Assembly: GCA_964355645.1 (NCBI GenBank)
Contig: CAYHDI010000002.1
Location: 11,452 to 75,451 of the forward strand
Length of the DNA: 64,000 nucleotides
From: an uncultured Candidatus Saccharibacteria bacterium
GTDB taxonomy: Bacteria; Patescibacteriota; Minisyncoccia; Phycocordibacterales; Zambryskibacteraceae
Direction: 5' to 3'
Shown: positions 10,315-16,798 of the stretch, in pieces
How positions within the stretch are numbered: position 1 is the first letter of the stretch
How the letters are laid out: each line of letters begins with the position of its first letter
Notes under the pieces: generated by a model
Database searches by the model: none
What the model was told of the DNA's origin: nothing
Seen by the model: the letters and a program-made list of their open reading frames with translations, nothing else
Program-made: the position numbers and the translations under genes

Positions 10315-11108
10315 TGTTCTACACAATGTTCAGAAAACTTTTCTCAACTTTATTCTTTGTACTACTTCTCGCGGGAGCGGGGGTTTATTTTTATAATCAG
10401 CAACCTTGCGTTCAACCGATTGGATTTAGGATTGGGACCCTCGACAGTCGGTTTGGATTGAGTCAGGTGGAGTTTAAGCAGATTGCTATTCAAGCCGAAG
10501 AAATTTGGAGCAAAGATTTGGGTAAACCATTATTCAAATACGATCCAAATGGGTCGCTGGCGGTGAATTTGATTTATGATTCAAGGCAGGCAACCGCGGA
10601 CAAGAATGCGAATATCATCTCAGACATAAATCAAACGACCGAATCCGCTGATGCGGTTCGTACCCAATTTCTCGCCCTTGAATTAAATTACAAAGAAAGT
10701 CTTGCAGATTACAACGCGCTTCTTTCAGAGCGAAAGGATTTTCAGGCGATTGAAGAGAAAAGATTGGAAGTCAACGCTTTGGCCGAGCAAATCAATGCGT
10801 TGGTAAAAAAATATAATTATTTGGTTAGTGCGGTGAACACAAATATAAATACGGTGAACCAGTCGGCGGGCAAAGAATTCGAAGAAGGGGAGTATGTTTA
10901 TGATTCGAACGGCAAGAGAATAAATATTTATGAATTTAAAACTCGATCGGAACTTATTCGAGTGCTAGCTCACGAATTTGGCCATGCGCTCAATATGAAT
11001 CACAACAATAATCCAAAATCGATTATGTATTATTTGAATCAGAGCTCAAATGAAGTCCCAACCGCAGAAGATACGAACGCCTTGAAAACAATTTGTAGAG
11101 TGAAATAA
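10314..11108 (+). CDS. membrane-anchored zinc metalloprotease (HExxHxxxxxH, matrixin-like)
   Basis: It has an N-terminal TM segment and the C-terminal motif LAHEFGHALNMNHNNN. Confidence 0.55.
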   Translation: MFYTMFRKLFSTLFFVLLLAGAGVYFYNQQPCVQPIGFRIGTLDSRFGLSQVEFKQIAIQAEEIWSKDLGKPLFKYDPNGSLAVNLIYDSRQATADKNANIISDINQTTESADAVRTQFLALELNYKESLADYNALLSERKDFQAIEEKRLEVNALAEQINALVKKYNYLVSAVNTNINTVNQSAGKEFEEGEYVYDSNGKRINIYEFKTRSELIRVLAHEFGHALNMNHNNNPKSIMYYLNQSSNEVPTAEDTNALKTICRVK

Positions 11109-11222
11109 AACCCTTGCTCCATCGGCATACAAGTGGACAAAGGCAGTGTTTTGTGCTAAGGTGCCCTCAGATCATGATGTACGCGGATTCCCCGCACAAA
11201 CCTGCTCCCGAGGTACCAACTC

Positions 11223-11801
11223 ATGCGCTCCTTTACCCTCGTTGTACTCCTGGCTATCCTGCTGGCCCCGTTGGGCCTGATTCAGGCCCAGAACACGTGC
11301 GGTATCTGTCCGCCCAAGGACACCACTGCCCTAGCCCTCAACGCCTTCAAGGCGAAGATGGACAAGACGGACAGGAGTCAGAATGCTCGCATCGCGAGCC
11401 TCCAGGTCTCCCGTGTCCAGATGCAGAAGAGCATCGAAGTCCTGTCCGGCAAGGTCCTCGACCTCAACGCGAGGCCTACGACCGATACGTCGGTCATGAA
11501 CCAGCTTACTTGGAATTCGGCCGAACTCGCTCGGCAGAAGGTCGAACTCTCCAAGGTCGAGAACGAGATCTCTGGGCTCGGGCGTCAGCTAGCCGAAGCA
11601 AGGGCAAAGGCTCTTGAACAGGCGAACAAGGATACCAAGAAGAAGACAAGCGGTCTGTCGACGGGCGACAAGTGGCTAATCGGCGGCTCAGCCGTCGTCG
11701 TGACTGGAGGACTGGTGTATCTCGCTGTCCAGAAATTGGGCAGGTCGGAGACTCACACCAGCTCCTCCAGCTCCTCCTGCTCCGGCAGCAATTGCCGATA
11801 G
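11223..11801 (+). CDS. secreted coiled-coil protein with C-terminal TM and Ser-rich tail, encoded in a roughly 60% GC block (likely foreign)
   Basis: It has a signal peptide (MRSFTLVVLLAILLAPLGLIQAQ). GC content jumps sharply relative to both flanks. A GC-rich terminator hairpin follows directly. Confidence 0.35.
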   Translation: MRSFTLVVLLAILLAPLGLIQAQNTCGICPPKDTTALALNAFKAKMDKTDRSQNARIASLQVSRVQMQKSIEVLSGKVLDLNARPTTDTSVMNQLTWNSAELARQKVELSKVENEISGLGRQLAEARAKALEQANKDTKKKTSGLSTGDKWLIGGSAVVVTGGLVYLAVQKLGRSETHTSSSSSSCSGSNCR

Positions 11802-12939: not shown

Positions 12940-12980
12940 CCCCTCTCCTTAATAAGGAGAGGGGCAGGGGTGAGGTGTAT
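12940..12980. repeat. GC-rich palindromic element, copy A (inner hairpin plus right outer arm)
   Basis: cccctctccttaataaggagaggggcaggggtgaggtgtat abuts the ftsZ stop codon. Confidence 0.6.
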
Positions 12981-14140
12981 TACTTCAATTTTGAACGACG
13001 GAGGAAAGCAGGCACGGCGCCCCAATCATCTTCGTTGTCATTCGCCGAAGGAGCAGGAGTGACTTCAGGCTTCTTTGTTTCCTCAACTTTTTCGCCCGGC
13101 TTTGTGAAGGAGTTGAAAATCTTGCCTTTGTCCCCATCATTTGAAGGAGTACCCCCGAACAAGGAAGTCGCTTTCTTCTGCATGTGCTCAGGGAAACTTG
13201 AAGCGATGACCGTAATCTTGAGTTCACCTTTTTTGAGTTTGTCATCCTTGACTGTCCCGAAAATAATCTTGGCATTCGGATCGACTGATTCGGTGATAAC
13301 CTTGGCTGCGTCTTGGATTTCAAACATAGTGAGGTCGTCTCCACCGGCGATAGAGAAGAGTACGCCCTTGGCCCCATTAATTGAGATTTCAAGAAGTGGA
13401 GAAGAGATGGCCATACGAGCCGCTTCCTCGGCGCGTTTCTCACCCGAAGCCCGTCCGATACCCATAAGTGCAGCACCTGCATTCTCCATGACCGCGCGAA
13501 TATCAGCGAAGTCAATGTTGATGATGCCCGGTGTAGTGATGAGGTCCGAGATTCCTTCAACGGCTTGTTTAAGAATGTTGTCGCAAGTGGCGAACGCATC
13601 CTTGGCTGTAGTGTCCTTGTCTATGGTTTGAAGAAGTCGGTCATTCGGAATGATGATGAGAGCGTCAACGGCTTGTTTGAGTTCATCTATAGCCACATCA
13701 GCAATTTTCATGCGTTGAATACCTTCGAAGAAGAAAGGCTTGGTAACTACAGCGACGGTGAGACAGCCAGCTTCCTTGGCTGTTCTCGCAATGACTGGAG
13801 CAGCCCCGGAAGCTGTCCCTCCTCCCATTCCGCAAGCAATGAAGACCATGTCTGCACCCTTGATGGCTTCTTGAATTTCTTCCTTCGTTTCTTCGACCGC
13901 GCGTTTACCCAAATCAGGATTCATCCCTGTACCCAAACCTCGAGTGAGGTTTTTCCCAATATGAATTTTCTTCTTGGCCAATGAGTGATGCAAATCTTGG
14001 GCATCTGTATTGACTGAAATGAAATCTACCCCCTTGACCTTCGAATTGATCATGTGGTTGATCGCGTTTTTCCCCGAACCTCCTACCCCGACGACCTTTA
14101 TCCTAGCGAAAGCTTCTACTTCTGGTTTGATTTGTGGCAT
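12980..14140 (-). CDS. ftsZ: cell division protein FtsZ
   Basis: It carries [13 protein letters not shown], a variant of the tubulin signature, and N-terminal [15 protein letters not shown]. Confidence 0.9.
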
Positions 14141-14261
14141 GTTTTTCTTATAAGTTTCTTGCGCCTTATACTACCTAAGCCCAGTCTAAAAGAAAAGGAG
14201 TTGACATTTTCTTTAAATGGTTTGTGAAAAAGAGTAATTTTTGAATTATTTTTATAAAAAG

Positions 14262-14302
14262 CGAAACCCCCTCTCCAACCGAAGTTGAATTGGGGGTTTT
14301 TG
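14262..14302 (-). terminator. terminator downstream of the acidic mini-protein gene
   Basis: On the minus strand the stem aaaccccc...gggggttt is followed by a T-run. Confidence 0.4.
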
Positions 14303-14303
14303 T

Positions 14304-14516
14304 TTAGACTGGTTCGCTGTCGTCTTCCGGCCAATCATACTTACATCTTGGGCAGAGTGGGGTCGAATCCGTGGGGTCCAGTTTGCTGACTGGAAACGGA
14401 TTTCCACATTCACCACAAATGGCCGGTCCTTCTAGTTCGAACTTGAAGTCTACTGCGCAGTCGTCTGCCGTTCCTTCTTCGAGATAATCAGGGGATTCTT
14501 CATAGTCGTCCGACAT
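14304..14516 (-). CDS. highly acidic zinc-ribbon mini-protein (70 aa)
   Basis: MSDDYEESPDYLEEGTADD...ICGECGNPF...LCPRCKYDWPEDDSEPV has two CxxC pairs. There is a strong RBS (aaggagatacaaATG). A long, roughly 150-200-nt structured leader lies downstream of a TTGACT-17-TAGTAT promoter at about 14700. Confidence 0.4.
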   Translation of the reverse strand: MSDDYEESPDYLEEGTADDCAVDFKFELEGPAICGECGNPFPVSKLDPTDSTPLCPRCKYDWPEDDSEPV

Positions 14517-14679
14517 TTGTATCTCCTTTGAAGGTTTAACTTTAAAGGAGTTATCGCATCCGCTTATTCCTGAGGGAAGGGTGAAGGAAGCGAAACCTTA
14601 CTGGCCAATGTGTCTTGATTACCCGTACAGACACTTTGGTGACTTTCGTCGTTCAGGTTGCTCTAGACTTATACTAGCA

Positions 14680-14712
14680 CGGTTCAATATGAAAGTCAAG
14701 CATTTTATCCAC
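14680..14712 (-). promoter_or_regulatory. promoter candidate (reverse strand: TTGACTttcatattgaaccgtgcTAGTAT) driving a long leader and the zinc-ribbon gene
   Basis: Read on the reverse complement of 14680-14712. Confidence 0.35.
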
Positions 14713-14792
14713 TTGTAAGAAAAGGCAGATATGTTAGTATACAGGGTATATACGGCTTCGGCCCTCCCCGCAAGGGGTTAATATACAAAAGC

Positions 14793-15182
14793 TCAAGCAA
14801 TCAAAAGCTTGATCTTTTGTTTTATCTCCACATAATCTTTTATGTCTAAAACCCCGATTTTATATTGTAAGCGTTTGGAATCTATCATTCTCAGTTGTGA
14901 AAGTATCACTGTATTAGAACCTCTATTCTCTAGACTAAAAGTAAAGTAGTATTCACCTTTTTTAGTTTTCTTTGTAAGTGGAATGGCCCAAAAACTTTCA
15001 TTATTAAATTTTCTTAACACAAGTACCGGACGACGGAACTCCTTACCCCTACCGTCTTCTTCAAATCCGATGTTGGCTCCGAGCGAGGCAAACCAAATTT
15101 CTCGTTCATGGAAGAAAGGCCTTTGTCTATCCTCGTGAATATCGCTTTTTTCTTTGTGCCATTCAGAAAAATCTTTTTTCAT
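14793..15182 (-). CDS. MazF/PemK-family mRNA interferase toxin-like protein
   Basis: ...EREIWFASLG...RRPVLVL...WAIPLT...TVILSQLRMIDSKRL..KIGVLD parallels MazF/NdoA in Bacillus (...RPVLVIQ...VILLEQIRTIDKQRLTDKI). It lies 16 bp downstream of ftsA. No upstream antitoxin gene is present. Confidence 0.6.
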   Translation of the reverse strand: MKKDFSEWHKEKSDIHEDRQRPFFHEREIWFASLGANIGFEEDGRGKEFRRPVLVLRKFNNESFWAIPLTKKTKKGEYYFTFSLENRGSNTVILSQLRMIDSKRLQYKIGVLDIKDYVEIKQKIKLLIA

Positions 15183-15198
15183 TTTTCCAAATGTTTAT

Positions 15199-16410
15199 TT
15201 AAGGCAGGAATTGGGAGAACCAATCGGAAACTTGGCGCAAACCTTTTTTCCCAGACTCAGCCATTTTTTCTACATTTCCGAGACCAATTGAGCGTTGTTC
15301 GTTTTCAGCATTGAACCCGAGGACGGCGAGTCCGTAGGCGACCGACCAAGTTAAATCTTTTTGTTTTTTGTTTGATTCAGAATTTTCTTCTCCAAAATGA
15401 ATCTCAGCAATTCTTGAGGGAAGTTTCAAAGTACTTTCGGCCAATTCTTTAATCATCGAGAGCTTGGCTCCACCTCCAGTGATGACTATGCCGGCAGGCA
15501 AGAGAGCGTTGCGACCAATTTTCTTCAAATGTGTTTCAATCAGTTCAAACATATCTTCGAGCCGAGCAGAAATTATTTCATCCAGCTTTTTCTTAGAATA
15601 ATTTGAATTAGTGATAGAGCCTAGCTTGATTGATTCAGCTTCTTCGAGTGAAATTTTCAATCCGAGAGCTATGTCGTTCGTGATGTCTGTCCCGCCGATA
15701 GGGAAAACTTCGAGCGAAATGGGATTGCTGTTTTCAAAAACAATCATAGAAAGTGTTTCCGCTCCAACATTGACCAAGACCACCCCTGCTTTCTTTTGTT
15801 TCTTGTTTAAATTGACGAAGCTTGAAGCAATGGGCGAAGCGACGACGTCTATGACTTCAATATCTATTTCTTCTACTGCTTTGATTAAATTTTGAATATG
15901 ACTCTCGAGACACATAATGAAGAAAGTTTTCACATCGAGCTTCTCGGCTTTCAAACCCAGAGCCTGTCCCCACACGGTCTTCCCATCAATCTTGTATTCA
16001 ATCGGGATGGTGTTGATAATCTTTTTGTTCAAAGAAACCGAGTGGGGAATGGTCGCTTCAGCCGTTTCAAGAGCTTTGTTCACATCAAGGGCTGTGATTT
16101 CAAGGTCGGCCCTAGAAATGACTGTGGAACCGTTCGTGGTGATACCTGAAAGCCCGATGCCTCCGATAGAAACAAACGCTCGTTTAATTTTATAATTCGA
16201 TGACTTTTCTGCTTGGGCGACAGCCAGAGCGATAGCTTCTGAAGCCTCAGAAGTATTGGTGATGAAGCCGTGATGCAGGCCCTTTGATTCACTCGAACCA
16301 CTACCTATTATTTTTGAAAAAATTTTTCCTTCAGCGTGCAACTCTTCAGCTACTACAACTTTGATTTCGTGAGTGCCTATATCAATGCCTGTTGCTATTT
16401 GACGTGCCAT
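15199..16410 (-). CDS. ftsA: cell division protein FtsA
   Basis: It has the actin/Hsp70-fold N-terminus IATGIDIGTHEIKVVVAE... and the 3' end is ...ITGGGAKL. The start was trimmed to the second Met at 16410. Confidence 0.85.
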   Translation of the reverse strand: MARQIATGIDIGTHEIKVVVAEELHAEGKIFSKIIGSGSSESKGLHHGFITNTSEASEAIALAVAQAEKSSNYKIKRAFVSIGGIGLSGITTNGSTVISRADLEITALDVNKALETAEATIPHSVSLNKKIINTIPIEYKIDGKTVWGQALGLKAEKLDVKTFFIMCLESHIQNLIKAVEEIDIEVIDVVASPIASSFVNLNKKQKKAGVVLVNVGAETLSMIVFENSNPISLEVFPIGGTDITNDIALGLKISLEEAESIKLGSITNSNYSKKKLDEIISARLEDMFELIETHLKKIGRNALLPAGIVITGGGAKLSMIKELAESTLKLPSRIAEIHFGEENSESNKKQKDLTWSVAYGLAVLGFNAENEQRSIGLGNVEKMAESGKKGLRQVSDWFSQFLP

Positions 16411-16798
16411 GAATTTTAAATGTTTGGCGTAGTTTGGATTCCGCTTTCTCCATTGTACTGCCATGTCTCATTCCCTTCAAATGGCACAAACCGTGGACAA
16501 AGAGAAAACCGACGAAATTTTGAAAAGTTTGATTGAAAATAGGAGCCTCCTTCTTAGCTAGTTCGAGGTTTATGAAAATTTCTCCGGTTCCGCCAGTTGG
16601 CGGATTCGAGAGAGGAAACGAGAGAATGTTCGTCGGTTTGTTTTTCTGCCGATAAGTTTTGTTTAGTTGTTTAGAAAGTTTGTTGTTTATGAAAACCAGT
16701 GAAAGTGCGTAGGTCCGACCTAAGCAAGTGTTTTTGATTAATTCAAAATGAATTTTTGGAACAACCCTCCTTGTTTTTTTGGAAATTGAAAATGGCAA
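16382..16798 (-). CDS. ybeY: rRNA maturation RNase YbeY
   Basis: It carries the HGLCHLKGMRH (HxxxHxxGxxH) zinc motif at 138 aa. It overlaps the annotated ftsA start. Confidence 0.75.
   Translation of the reverse strand: MPFSISKKTRRVVPKIHFELIKNTCLGRTYALSLVFINNKLSKQLNKTYRQKNKPTNILSFPLSNPPTGGTGEIFINLELAKKEAPIFNQTFQNFVGFLFVHGLCHLKGMRHGSTMEKAESKLRQTFKIHGTSNSNRH

Follow-up and report, generated by a model that had tools for sequence, protein, structure and literature searches.

A MazF-like nuclease gene of Paceibacteria and a predicted small RNA gene that converges on it

Introduction

MazF toxins are textbook components of type II toxin–antitoxin systems, in which they are neutralised by protein antitoxins. 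Here we analyse a MazF-like gene that lies between ftsA and ftsZ in a 64,000-nucleotide (nt) stretch of DNA, referred to below as the window (positions 11,452 to 75,451 of contig CAYHDI010000002.1, assembly GCA_964355645.1), from an uncultured bacterium of the Patescibacteria assigned to the Zambryskibacteraceae. An initial annotation had proposed that this gene and a highly acidic zinc-ribbon protein encoded next to it form a reverse-order toxin–antitoxin pair, reminiscent of MqsR/MqsA, and that their placement may couple growth arrest to the division operon. Comparison with relatives points to another companion: the constant neighbour of the MazF-like gene is a predicted small RNA (sRNA) gene of about 76 nt on the opposite strand, recognised by its promoter, hairpins and terminator.

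With the MazEF/PemIK systems of type II (Escherichia coli MazF; Bacillus subtilis EndoA/MazF, PDB 4mdx and 4me7) the present family shares the MazF fold, the RPx(V/I) and P-x-T motifs with their catalytic Arg and Thr, and the GxEQ motif of the beta1–beta2 loop. It differs from them in a conserved additional N-terminal segment of about 27 amino acids (aa), in its identity of only about 20% to solved MazFs, in evolving as slowly as core genes and in its link to a predicted convergent sRNA gene; the adjacent, co-transcribed and conserved protein antitoxin gene that marks type II, be it MazE, PemI or another, was not found with this family.

Convergent antisense RNAs are known from the type I systems txpA/RatA and bsrG/SR4 of B. 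subtilis, where they overlap the 3' ends of genes for small hydrophobic peptide toxins by about 75–120 nt. The locus described here is alike in that a predicted sRNA gene with its own promoter converges on the MazF-like gene, with a 3' overlap round a shared terminator; by computational signals, an antisense RNA is predicted to be encoded in cis and to overlap the mRNA of the toxin candidate. The overlap, however, is about 31 nt, conservation is highest in the 5' part of the RNA, outside the overlap, and the protein is a soluble 129-aa member of the MazF fold and not a small hydrophobic, membrane-active toxin. In the SymE/SymR system of E. coli, the antisense RNA SymR overlaps the 5' end and ribosome-binding site of the gene for SymE, which has an AbrB/MazE-like fold. 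There, as proposed here, an antisense RNA controls an RNA-cleaving protein toxin (of about 110 aa) and not a membrane peptide; the fold and the 5' overlap differ from the MazF fold and 3' overlap of the present case. MqsR/MqsA matches the window in having the toxin gene first and a small zinc-binding protein second, but MqsA has a helix–turn–helix (HTH) domain, shares a transcript with MqsR and is always found together with MqsR; the acidic protein has none of these properties.

Type III systems (ToxIN, CptIN and TenpIN) combine an endoribonuclease toxin of the wider Kid/MazF-like fold class with a structured RNA that neutralises it by direct binding (PMC3401426). Such binding would account for the sequence-invariant hairpin of the sRNA predicted here. 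The type III antitoxin, in contrast, is encoded by tandem repeats that lie upstream of the toxin gene in the same orientation, and the toxin, of the ToxN/AbiQ type, processes it, whereas we find a predicted single-copy RNA, downstream and on the opposite strand, and a Pfam match to PemK, not ToxN. A last comparison is with MazF-mx of Myxococcus xanthus, which is solitary too: its gene is chromosomal and no mazE lies beside it. The reported antitoxin is an unlinked transcription factor, MrpC (PMC4803016), and a linked RNA is not known for MazF-mx.

Results

The 129-aa protein is a MazF-family member with conserved catalytic residues

By sequence profile and modelled structure, the 129-aa protein is a genuine PemK/MazF-family member with the MazF/Kid SH3-like barrel fold, as the initial annotation had recognised. 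Residues 28–127 match Pfam PemK_toxin (PF02452) at 42.6 bits (cut-off 23.1; E = 7.5e-11), and PHROG 9567 ('MazF-like growth inhibitor') matches residues 3–126 (E = 3e-16). An AlphaFold2 (AF2) model, with a predicted local distance difference test score (pLDDT) of 78.7 and low confidence only for residues 1–13 and the beta1–beta2 loop, matched YdcE, MoxT and MazF of Staphylococcus aureus, Mycobacterium tuberculosis and E. coli in Foldseek (E about 1e-7; TM-score 0.67–0.76).

In an alignment of 36 family members, Arg51-Pro52 is invariant and Thr70 is at least 90% conserved. A PDB profile search aligned Arg51 and Thr70 to Arg25 and Thr48 of B. subtilis MazF (4mdx, 4me7), residues that are catalytic in MazF of B. 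subtilis/B. cereus (PMC7354611). In the same alignment, W8, H9, K12, R21 and F23–E26 mark the extra N-terminal stretch of about 27 aa, which is peculiar to this family. As to whether this stretch might serve as an intramolecular antitoxin, the AF2 model, with residues 1–20 at low confidence, was uninformative.

A small RNA gene is predicted to converge on the MazF-like gene

No protein antitoxin-like open reading frame (ORF) flanks the MazF-like gene of the window, which agrees with the initial annotation, where none had been seen upstream. Neighbourhood, promoter and hairpin counts given here and below refer to the best 80 species-level MazF-like loci. Clustering of neighbouring ORFs across these loci gave no common partner except atpG upstream with atpD downstream (7–8 loci) and mreB (5 loci), and it brought out no hidden protein antitoxin; small ORFs adjoining the MazF-like genes were singletons or artefacts, the RGRAEAIC-like 'ORFs' being a translated RNA element. 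It was through such false small ORFs, which follow the MazF-like stop codon and share a peptide-like motif, that the element was found.

An 11-mer, GGGCCGAAGCC, occurs exactly once per locus, 22–40 nt past the stop codon, in 64 of the 80 loci, and its only occurrence in the 64-kb window is at 14754–14764. Variants stand at the same place in 15 more loci, so that the motif or a variant is found in 79 of 80, and several of the variants are compensatory (GAC..GUC; GGCC-UAAA-GGCC; GCC-UUUC-GGC). Alignment of the 79 loci revealed two further conserved blocks downstream. When read on the opposite strand, these form a near-consensus sigma70-type promoter, TTGAC[AT]-N16-18-(TGn)TATACT/TATAAT, which stands about 12 nt ahead of the UUCG hairpin in 68 loci. 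The full set of signals, from promoter to terminator, is present in 68 loci, the window among them (Table 1).

The predicted RNA begins with a single-stranded 5' segment (UAUAUAC in the window, UACAAAU in the family consensus), which is followed by the near-invariant UUCG hairpin, a second hairpin (H1'), an A-rich linker and a terminator. H1' forms in 68/68 loci; its stem occurs in 30 versions, and its loop is mostly of the GNRA type. An antisense intrinsic terminator is likewise present in 68/68 loci, as a stem of 10–12 bp over the stop codon and last MazF codons followed by a U tract, which gives a median RNA length of 77 nt; in the window the predicted RNA overlaps the MazF-like ORF by its final 31 nt. 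For a small subgroup of loci, the terminator scan chose the GNRA hairpin, about 41 nt from the start, as the first site, and transcripts of these loci may end there. The hairpin over the stop codon is followed by a U tract on either strand and could be a bidirectional terminator common to the MazF-like mRNA and the sRNA.

Covariation supports this terminator helix and links the 3' untranslated region (UTR) with the last MazF codons. Its cells are paired in 95.4% of cases, with 180 double-change cells compared with 53 ± 6 after shuffling (0/500) and 19–32 in slid controls, and its covariation score is 0.577 compared with 0.194 (shuffled) and about 0.1 (slid). The folding energy of the window sRNA is −26.2 kcal/mol, compared with −15.1 ± 2.6 for shuffled sequences (z = −4.4).

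Such a conserved 3' element might also act as DNA or in cis on the mRNA, as a cassette recombination site or as a 3' UTR stabiliser or terminator, next to sequence that resembles a promoter fortuitously. The MazF-like gene does resemble a promoterless single-gene cassette behind varied genes, and the hairpin over the stop codon can terminate the sense transcript too. We nevertheless regard this explanation as very improbable: the near-consensus −35 and −10 boxes keep a fixed distance and orientation in 68 loci, the UUCG and GNRA loops arise only when the antisense strand is read, and the antisense U tract follows the hairpin in 68/68 loci. Strand asymmetry (64 G·U compared with 5 A·C cells) also favours the sRNA strand, which folds more stably in 61 of 68 loci, with a mean gain of 5.3 kcal/mol. 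(For H1', a permissive hairpin finder proved unreliable as a strand test, and the energy comparison was used instead.) A sense-strand reading as a 3' UTR structure or attC-like site was dropped given the antisense promoter, the tetraloops and the G·U asymmetry.

Searches of Rfam 15 gave no match to the sRNA, either in the window or at the sRNA position in eight other loci. A 16-mer of the sRNA had 18 matches among viral contigs, all of which were set aside as chance matches in GC-rich coding DNA with no MazF, promoter or hairpin. A 40%-identical homologue on an IMG/VR contig (L107; L numbers denote loci) keeps the promoter, the 5' ACAAAU, a hairpin and a hairpin across the stop codon. Among homologues in Campylobacter prophages, which are solitary MazF-like genes between terminase and portal genes, an antisense TGATATAAT box and a hairpin with U tract over the stop codon were seen; these include L108 (Campylobacter phage CJIE4-1, KF751793.1 34466–34900), a 34%-identical 'toxin MazF' with the terminase large subunit and portal on either side. 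The antisense-RNA layout may thus extend beyond the Patescibacteria.

The MazF-like family is widespread, slowly evolving and varied in context

A database search returned 967 MazF-like homologues. The best 120 of these have 56–100% identity, are 123–156 aa long (nearly all 128–136) and all come from Patescibacteria/Parcubacteria; when one genome per species was scanned, at least 546 species-level genomes of Paceibacteria (Parcubacteria) were found to encode a relative. Over the same genome pairs, mean identity was 61.5% for the MazF-like protein, compared with 64.1% for AtpD, 45.5% for AtpG and 53% for MreB. The protein evolves about as slowly as AtpD, which is unusual in a toxin.

A co-directional gene precedes the MazF-like gene in 61 of 73 loci, at a gap of 35 nt or less in 29, and the gap downstream is wider; the preceding gene, at 0–35 nt, is often a housekeeping gene. 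MazF-like genes lie between fmt and def in Zambryskibacteria, between a SIMPL-domain gene and secE-nusG-rplK in the case of a 79%-identical homologue, inside atpG-atpD, a position that is stable across deeply diverged genomes, or after mreB. Within 4 kb of the gene in the 80 species-level loci, none of ftsA, ftsZ, the acidic protein, fmt or def was found. A protein identical to that of the window is encoded on at least 13 contigs. In all six of the loci shown, its gene directly follows ftsA; the four that reach further downstream all carry the 70-aa gene and then ftsZ, and two of the six come from Hainich wells. On these comparisons, the placement between ftsA and ftsZ is limited to one groundwater population, and the idea of a coupling to the division operon loses its ground.

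Just 16 nt separate the ftsA stop codon from the ATG of the MazF-like gene in the window, and no promoter-like site is present in this gap; co-transcription of the two genes is therefore likely. Elsewhere in the family, examination of 45 nt upstream showed that many MazF-like translation starts are without a Shine–Dalgarno sequence and that a TATAAT-like box stands 6–9 nt ahead of the ATG in many (L012, L016, L028, L031, L032, L045, L058, L059, L075 and L081 among them). Together these two features suggest leaderless MazF-like mRNAs where the gene is uncoupled from the gene upstream.

The breadth and slow evolution of the family bear on the main rival to control by an antitoxin-like RNA, namely that the MazF-like protein has ceased to be a toxin and serves Paceibacteria as a core enzyme of RNA processing, domesticated as part of a housekeeping ribonucleoprotein in which the sRNA is a cofactor, guide, substrate or assembly partner and not an antitoxin. 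Conservation equal to that of AtpD, and above that of AtpG and MreB, in the same genomes would be expected of such an enzyme, as would its presence in so many species, its lasting position in atpG-atpD and its frequent co-transcription with housekeeping genes, and PADLOC gave no defence-system match for the MazF-like gene. Against these points, the gene changes position even at 79% identity and occurs twice in one metagenome-assembled genome (MAG; CAYIUC01, L046 and L062, each copy with its GGGCCGAAGCC element). Campylobacter prophages carry relatives of it as morons, and a further relative is on a contig that was classified as viral. The ORF has also been lost from a strain 98–99% identical to that of the window (see below), and hence is dispensable there. 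We consider a domesticated ribonucleoprotein unlikely, although it deserves more weight than the other alternatives.

A natural deletion strain has lost the nuclease gene and kept the predicted RNA gene

Two contigs from Hainich well H43 (L092 and L093) encode FtsA and FtsZ 97–99% identical to those of the window, but their MazF-like ORF is replaced by about 130 nt of unrelated sequence. Homology restarts exactly at the antisense-terminator U tract, such that the sRNA gene is intact from promoter to U tract. The same contigs carry a clean 245-nt deletion, with AGCG microhomology at its flanks, which removes the 3' leader and nearly the whole of the acidic ORF, leaves the last few codons and brings the terminator directly behind the 5' leader. 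That population can therefore dispense with both protein genes. As far as can be read from the retained signals, loss of the nuclease with retention of the RNA is the loss order expected of a toxin and its antidote.

The window has no copy of the replacement sequence (L093 1819–1948, the same in L092, reverse strand), within which there are two inverted repeats, GCGTGTC..GACACACGC and GTCAAACA..TGTTTGAC.

The acidic protein belongs to a separate unit

The description of the locus in the initial annotation was accurate: on the minus strand, the ORF list and sequence give ftsA, 16 nt, the MazF-like gene, a separately promoted 70-aa acidic CxxC protein with a structured leader, and ftsZ. It had not included the predicted sRNA gene on the plus strand. 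The MazF-like and acidic genes are separated by a terminator, the sRNA gene and a promoter, and, judged by these signals, the ftsA–ftsZ interval comprises three independent units: the MazF-like gene, the sRNA gene and the acidic-protein unit. The promoters of the latter two are divergent, and their −35 boxes (sRNA, plus strand, 14713–14718; acidic gene, minus strand, 14699–14694) stand back to back with 13 nt between them.

The acidic protein has 20 Asp and Glu residues compared with 4 Lys and Arg, an isoelectric point of 4.05, five Cys with CGEC and CPRC pairs, and no HTH. Differences between its ORF and homologues fall mainly at third codon positions (20–31, compared with 5–14 at first or second positions), and the ORF is therefore coding. 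Its core motif is DDCAVDFKF..GPAxCxECG..FP..LDPTDSxPLCPxCKYxDW. The protein falls below every Pfam cut-off, the best match being DUF3039 (PF11238; 19.9 compared with 22.7 bits), which also matches 8 of 14 family members below threshold (best E = 2.9e-4), and the AF2 model (pLDDT 64.5) was too weak for a fold search. The family amounts to 13 clusters among 5.8 billion; a full HMMER scan added only a few small proteins, and long hits in the representative library were mostly spurious, to eukaryotic C2H2 zinc-finger repeats. Distant members (P0127, P0128, P0129, P0144, P0210 and L091 542–925) have extra CxxC pairs, as a second N-terminal zinc ribbon or a C-terminal Cys cluster, and L091 retains the same leader at only 43% identity of the acidic protein.

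The leader of about 150 nt is predicted to fold into three helical elements. Within P1 lie a GAAA hairpin and a second, long one, whose 13-nt loop, GUACGGGUAAUCA, is conserved; P2 bears UUCACCC; and in P3, CUCCUUU is paired with the Shine–Dalgarno sequence AAAGGAG. In the leader alignment 96.2% of cells are paired, with 11 compensatory pairs compared with 4.5 ± 1.5 after shuffling (0/500) and 1–4 in slid controls. Nucleotide identity is 74–87% for the leader and 72–78% for the acidic ORF, and in homologous loci the promoter, leader and terminator move together with the ORF. A leader covariance model matched only upstream of acidic-family genes, and its pattern had no match among viral contigs. 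Nor did Rfam 15 match the leader: the window gave only tRNAs at gathering thresholds, with nothing relevant at E ≤ 10 in 14100–15250. The leader is probably a new candidate cis-regulatory element, predicted to act on translation by sequestering the Shine–Dalgarno sequence in its last helix.

We also noted that the leader contains, at 14582–14604 of the window (minus strand), GCUUCCUUCACCC, which is like the anti-Shine–Dalgarno end of 16S rRNA, and that GGUUUCGC is present both in the leader and right after the terminator stem (14261–14271, minus strand). GGGU of the 13-nt loop could form a pseudoknot with ACCC; both are invariant, so covariation is uninformative here.

In the light of these results we find it extremely doubtful, and the least probable of the explanations weighed here, that the MazF-like toxin and the acidic protein form a reverse-order, type II-like pair in the manner of MqsR/MqsA that would couple growth arrest to the division operon. 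Neither the acidic gene nor its leader was found in the 80 other MazF-like loci. Conversely, the acidic gene is a stand-alone unit in some seven further contexts, which all differ (murE, directly after a tRNA, glyoxalase genes, an HD-domain gene, an integrase), and no MazF gene was near it in those examined; the families themselves differ in size, with 13 clusters for the acidic protein compared with about 1,000 for the MazF-like protein. Alignment confirmed the MazF catalytic residues. The co-occurrence and co-transcription across genomes that characterise MqsRA are not seen, and the two genes were not found together outside the window's own lineage, an outcome that the initial annotation had named as refuting its proposal. 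A pair without HTH, in separate transcription units and in a placement that is not conserved would retain in its favour the adjacency of the genes in the window, aromatic residues in the acidic protein that are reminiscent of MazE C-termini and, as the point that still speaks most directly for the earlier proposal, the joint loss of both ORFs from the close strain from well H43. The acidic unit, which would be monocistronic with its own promoter, leader and terminator, is more readily seen as adjacent to the MazF-like gene by chance in this lineage.

Features of the window

Coordinates of the features discussed are collected in Table 1.

Table 1 Features in and around the ftsA–ftsZ interval (window coordinates)
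Feature	Position	Strand	Basis or remarks
ybeY	16382–16798	minus	Pfam confirms YbeY
ftsA	15199–16464	minus	Pfam FtsA / SHS2_FTSA
MazF-like gene, 129 aa	14793–15182	minus	Pfam PF02452, family alignment, PDB profile, AF2/Foldseek, PHROG
Stop-codon-spanning hairpin, arms 14787–14798 and 14807–14818	14787–14825	both	U tract on either strand; terminator-like on both strands
Predicted sRNA, ~76 nt	~14748–14823	plus	Promoter, hairpins, terminator, covariation; ends predicted
GNRA hairpin CCCC[GCAA]GGGG of predicted sRNA	14766–14777	plus	Stem covaries
Hairpin GGC[UUCG]GCC of predicted sRNA	14754–14764	plus	Near-invariant in family
Predicted sRNA promoter: −35 TTGTAA 14713–14718, 16-nt spacer, extended −10 TGtTAGTAT 14732–14740	14713–14740	plus	Sequence
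Predicted acidic-unit promoter TTGACT-17-TGcTAGTAT	14671–14699	minus	Conserved in L007, L008, L009, L091, L103
Predicted structured leader of acidic gene, ~150 nt	14517–14664	minus	Seven-leader alignment, RNAalifold, covariation
Acidic zinc-ribbon gene, 70 aa	14304–14516	minus	Codon-position bias compared with homologues
Predicted acidic-unit intrinsic terminator CCCCC..CAAC[UUCG]GUUG..GGGGG + U tract	14256–14296	minus	(Near-)identical in L007, L008, L009
ftsZ	12980–14140	minus	Pfam Tubulin / FtsZ_C

A −10-like box, TAGTATAAG, which resembles that of the acidic-gene promoter, precedes ftsZ. Further along the window, 11100–11800 is a G+C-rich island (0.55–0.60, compared with about 0.42 in its surroundings) that may be foreign DNA. 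It contains an ORF (11223–11801, plus strand, 192 aa) whose start resembles a signal peptide and whose middle resembles a coiled coil, and which also has a hydrophobic segment and a tail rich in Ser and Cys.

Discussion

We consider it reasonably probable that this MazF-type nuclease is controlled by an antitoxin-like small RNA. Our fuller proposal is more tentative: that a MazF-family endoribonuclease with a dedicated sRNA antitoxin or partner, in a hybrid of type I and type III, forms a near-core two-gene module across a class of the Candidate Phyla Radiation, and is possibly a domesticated, RNA-controlled RNase and not a selfish element. A sigma70-type promoter of its own would drive transcription of the sRNA gene in the direction of the MazF-like gene and up to the hairpin over the MazF stop codon, and the product would be an RNA antitoxin or regulator of the nuclease. 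Control could be exerted by either of two routes. The RNA might pair with the 3' end of the mazF-like mRNA or with read-through transcripts, which would resemble type I systems. In the other route, which would resemble type III, its near-invariant 5' part (UACAAAU and GGC[UUCG]GCC) might be a pseudo-substrate to which the nuclease binds directly. Direct binding is slightly favoured, because the 5' part is not complementary to the terminated mRNA and yet is invariant in sequence, while the rest of the RNA varies. The UACA-type sequence at the 5' end resembles sequences that Bacillus-type MazFs cut.

Several observations weigh against control by an antitoxin-like RNA. Complementarity to a correctly terminated mRNA amounts to about 31 nt, all within the hairpin, which is short for type I, and a single-copy RNA on the opposite strand downstream is unlike the repeat arrays of type III. 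Conservation like that of housekeeping genes is more easily reconciled with a domesticated RNase than with a selfish toxin. Pairing of the sRNA 5' end with the translation start of the mazF-like gene was considered and rejected: no conserved target was seen there, and the starts appear to be leaderless or to lack a Shine–Dalgarno sequence. The loss of both ORFs in one strain (a single lineage) is also what a link between the MazF-like and acidic proteins would predict. Finally, both the production of the sRNA and its function are deduced from sequence signals, and its ends are predicted.

In the literature that we found, neither this MazF-like family nor an RNA partner of any MazF is described; the association of a MazF-family nuclease with a predicted convergent sRNA across Paceibacteria is undescribed there, as is type I/III hybrid logic for MazF toxins. 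The nearest precedents are the solitary MazF-mx, the type I systems with overlapping 3' ends and ToxIN of type III. Neither the predicted sRNA nor the acidic-gene leader is in Rfam, and each is a candidate RNA family.

What stands out is that a large MazF clade, in at least 546 species genomes, has a predicted convergent structured sRNA as its constant companion and no protein partner. Partners that are non-coding can escape protein-based annotation and leave a toxin looking like an 'orphan'. Were the RNA the controller, the classification into types I, II and III would be blurred, and the almost uncultivated Patescibacteria would offer a testable RNA–protein pair. The association is also a possible pointer to a conserved RNA-processing function in the reduced genomes of Patescibacteria.

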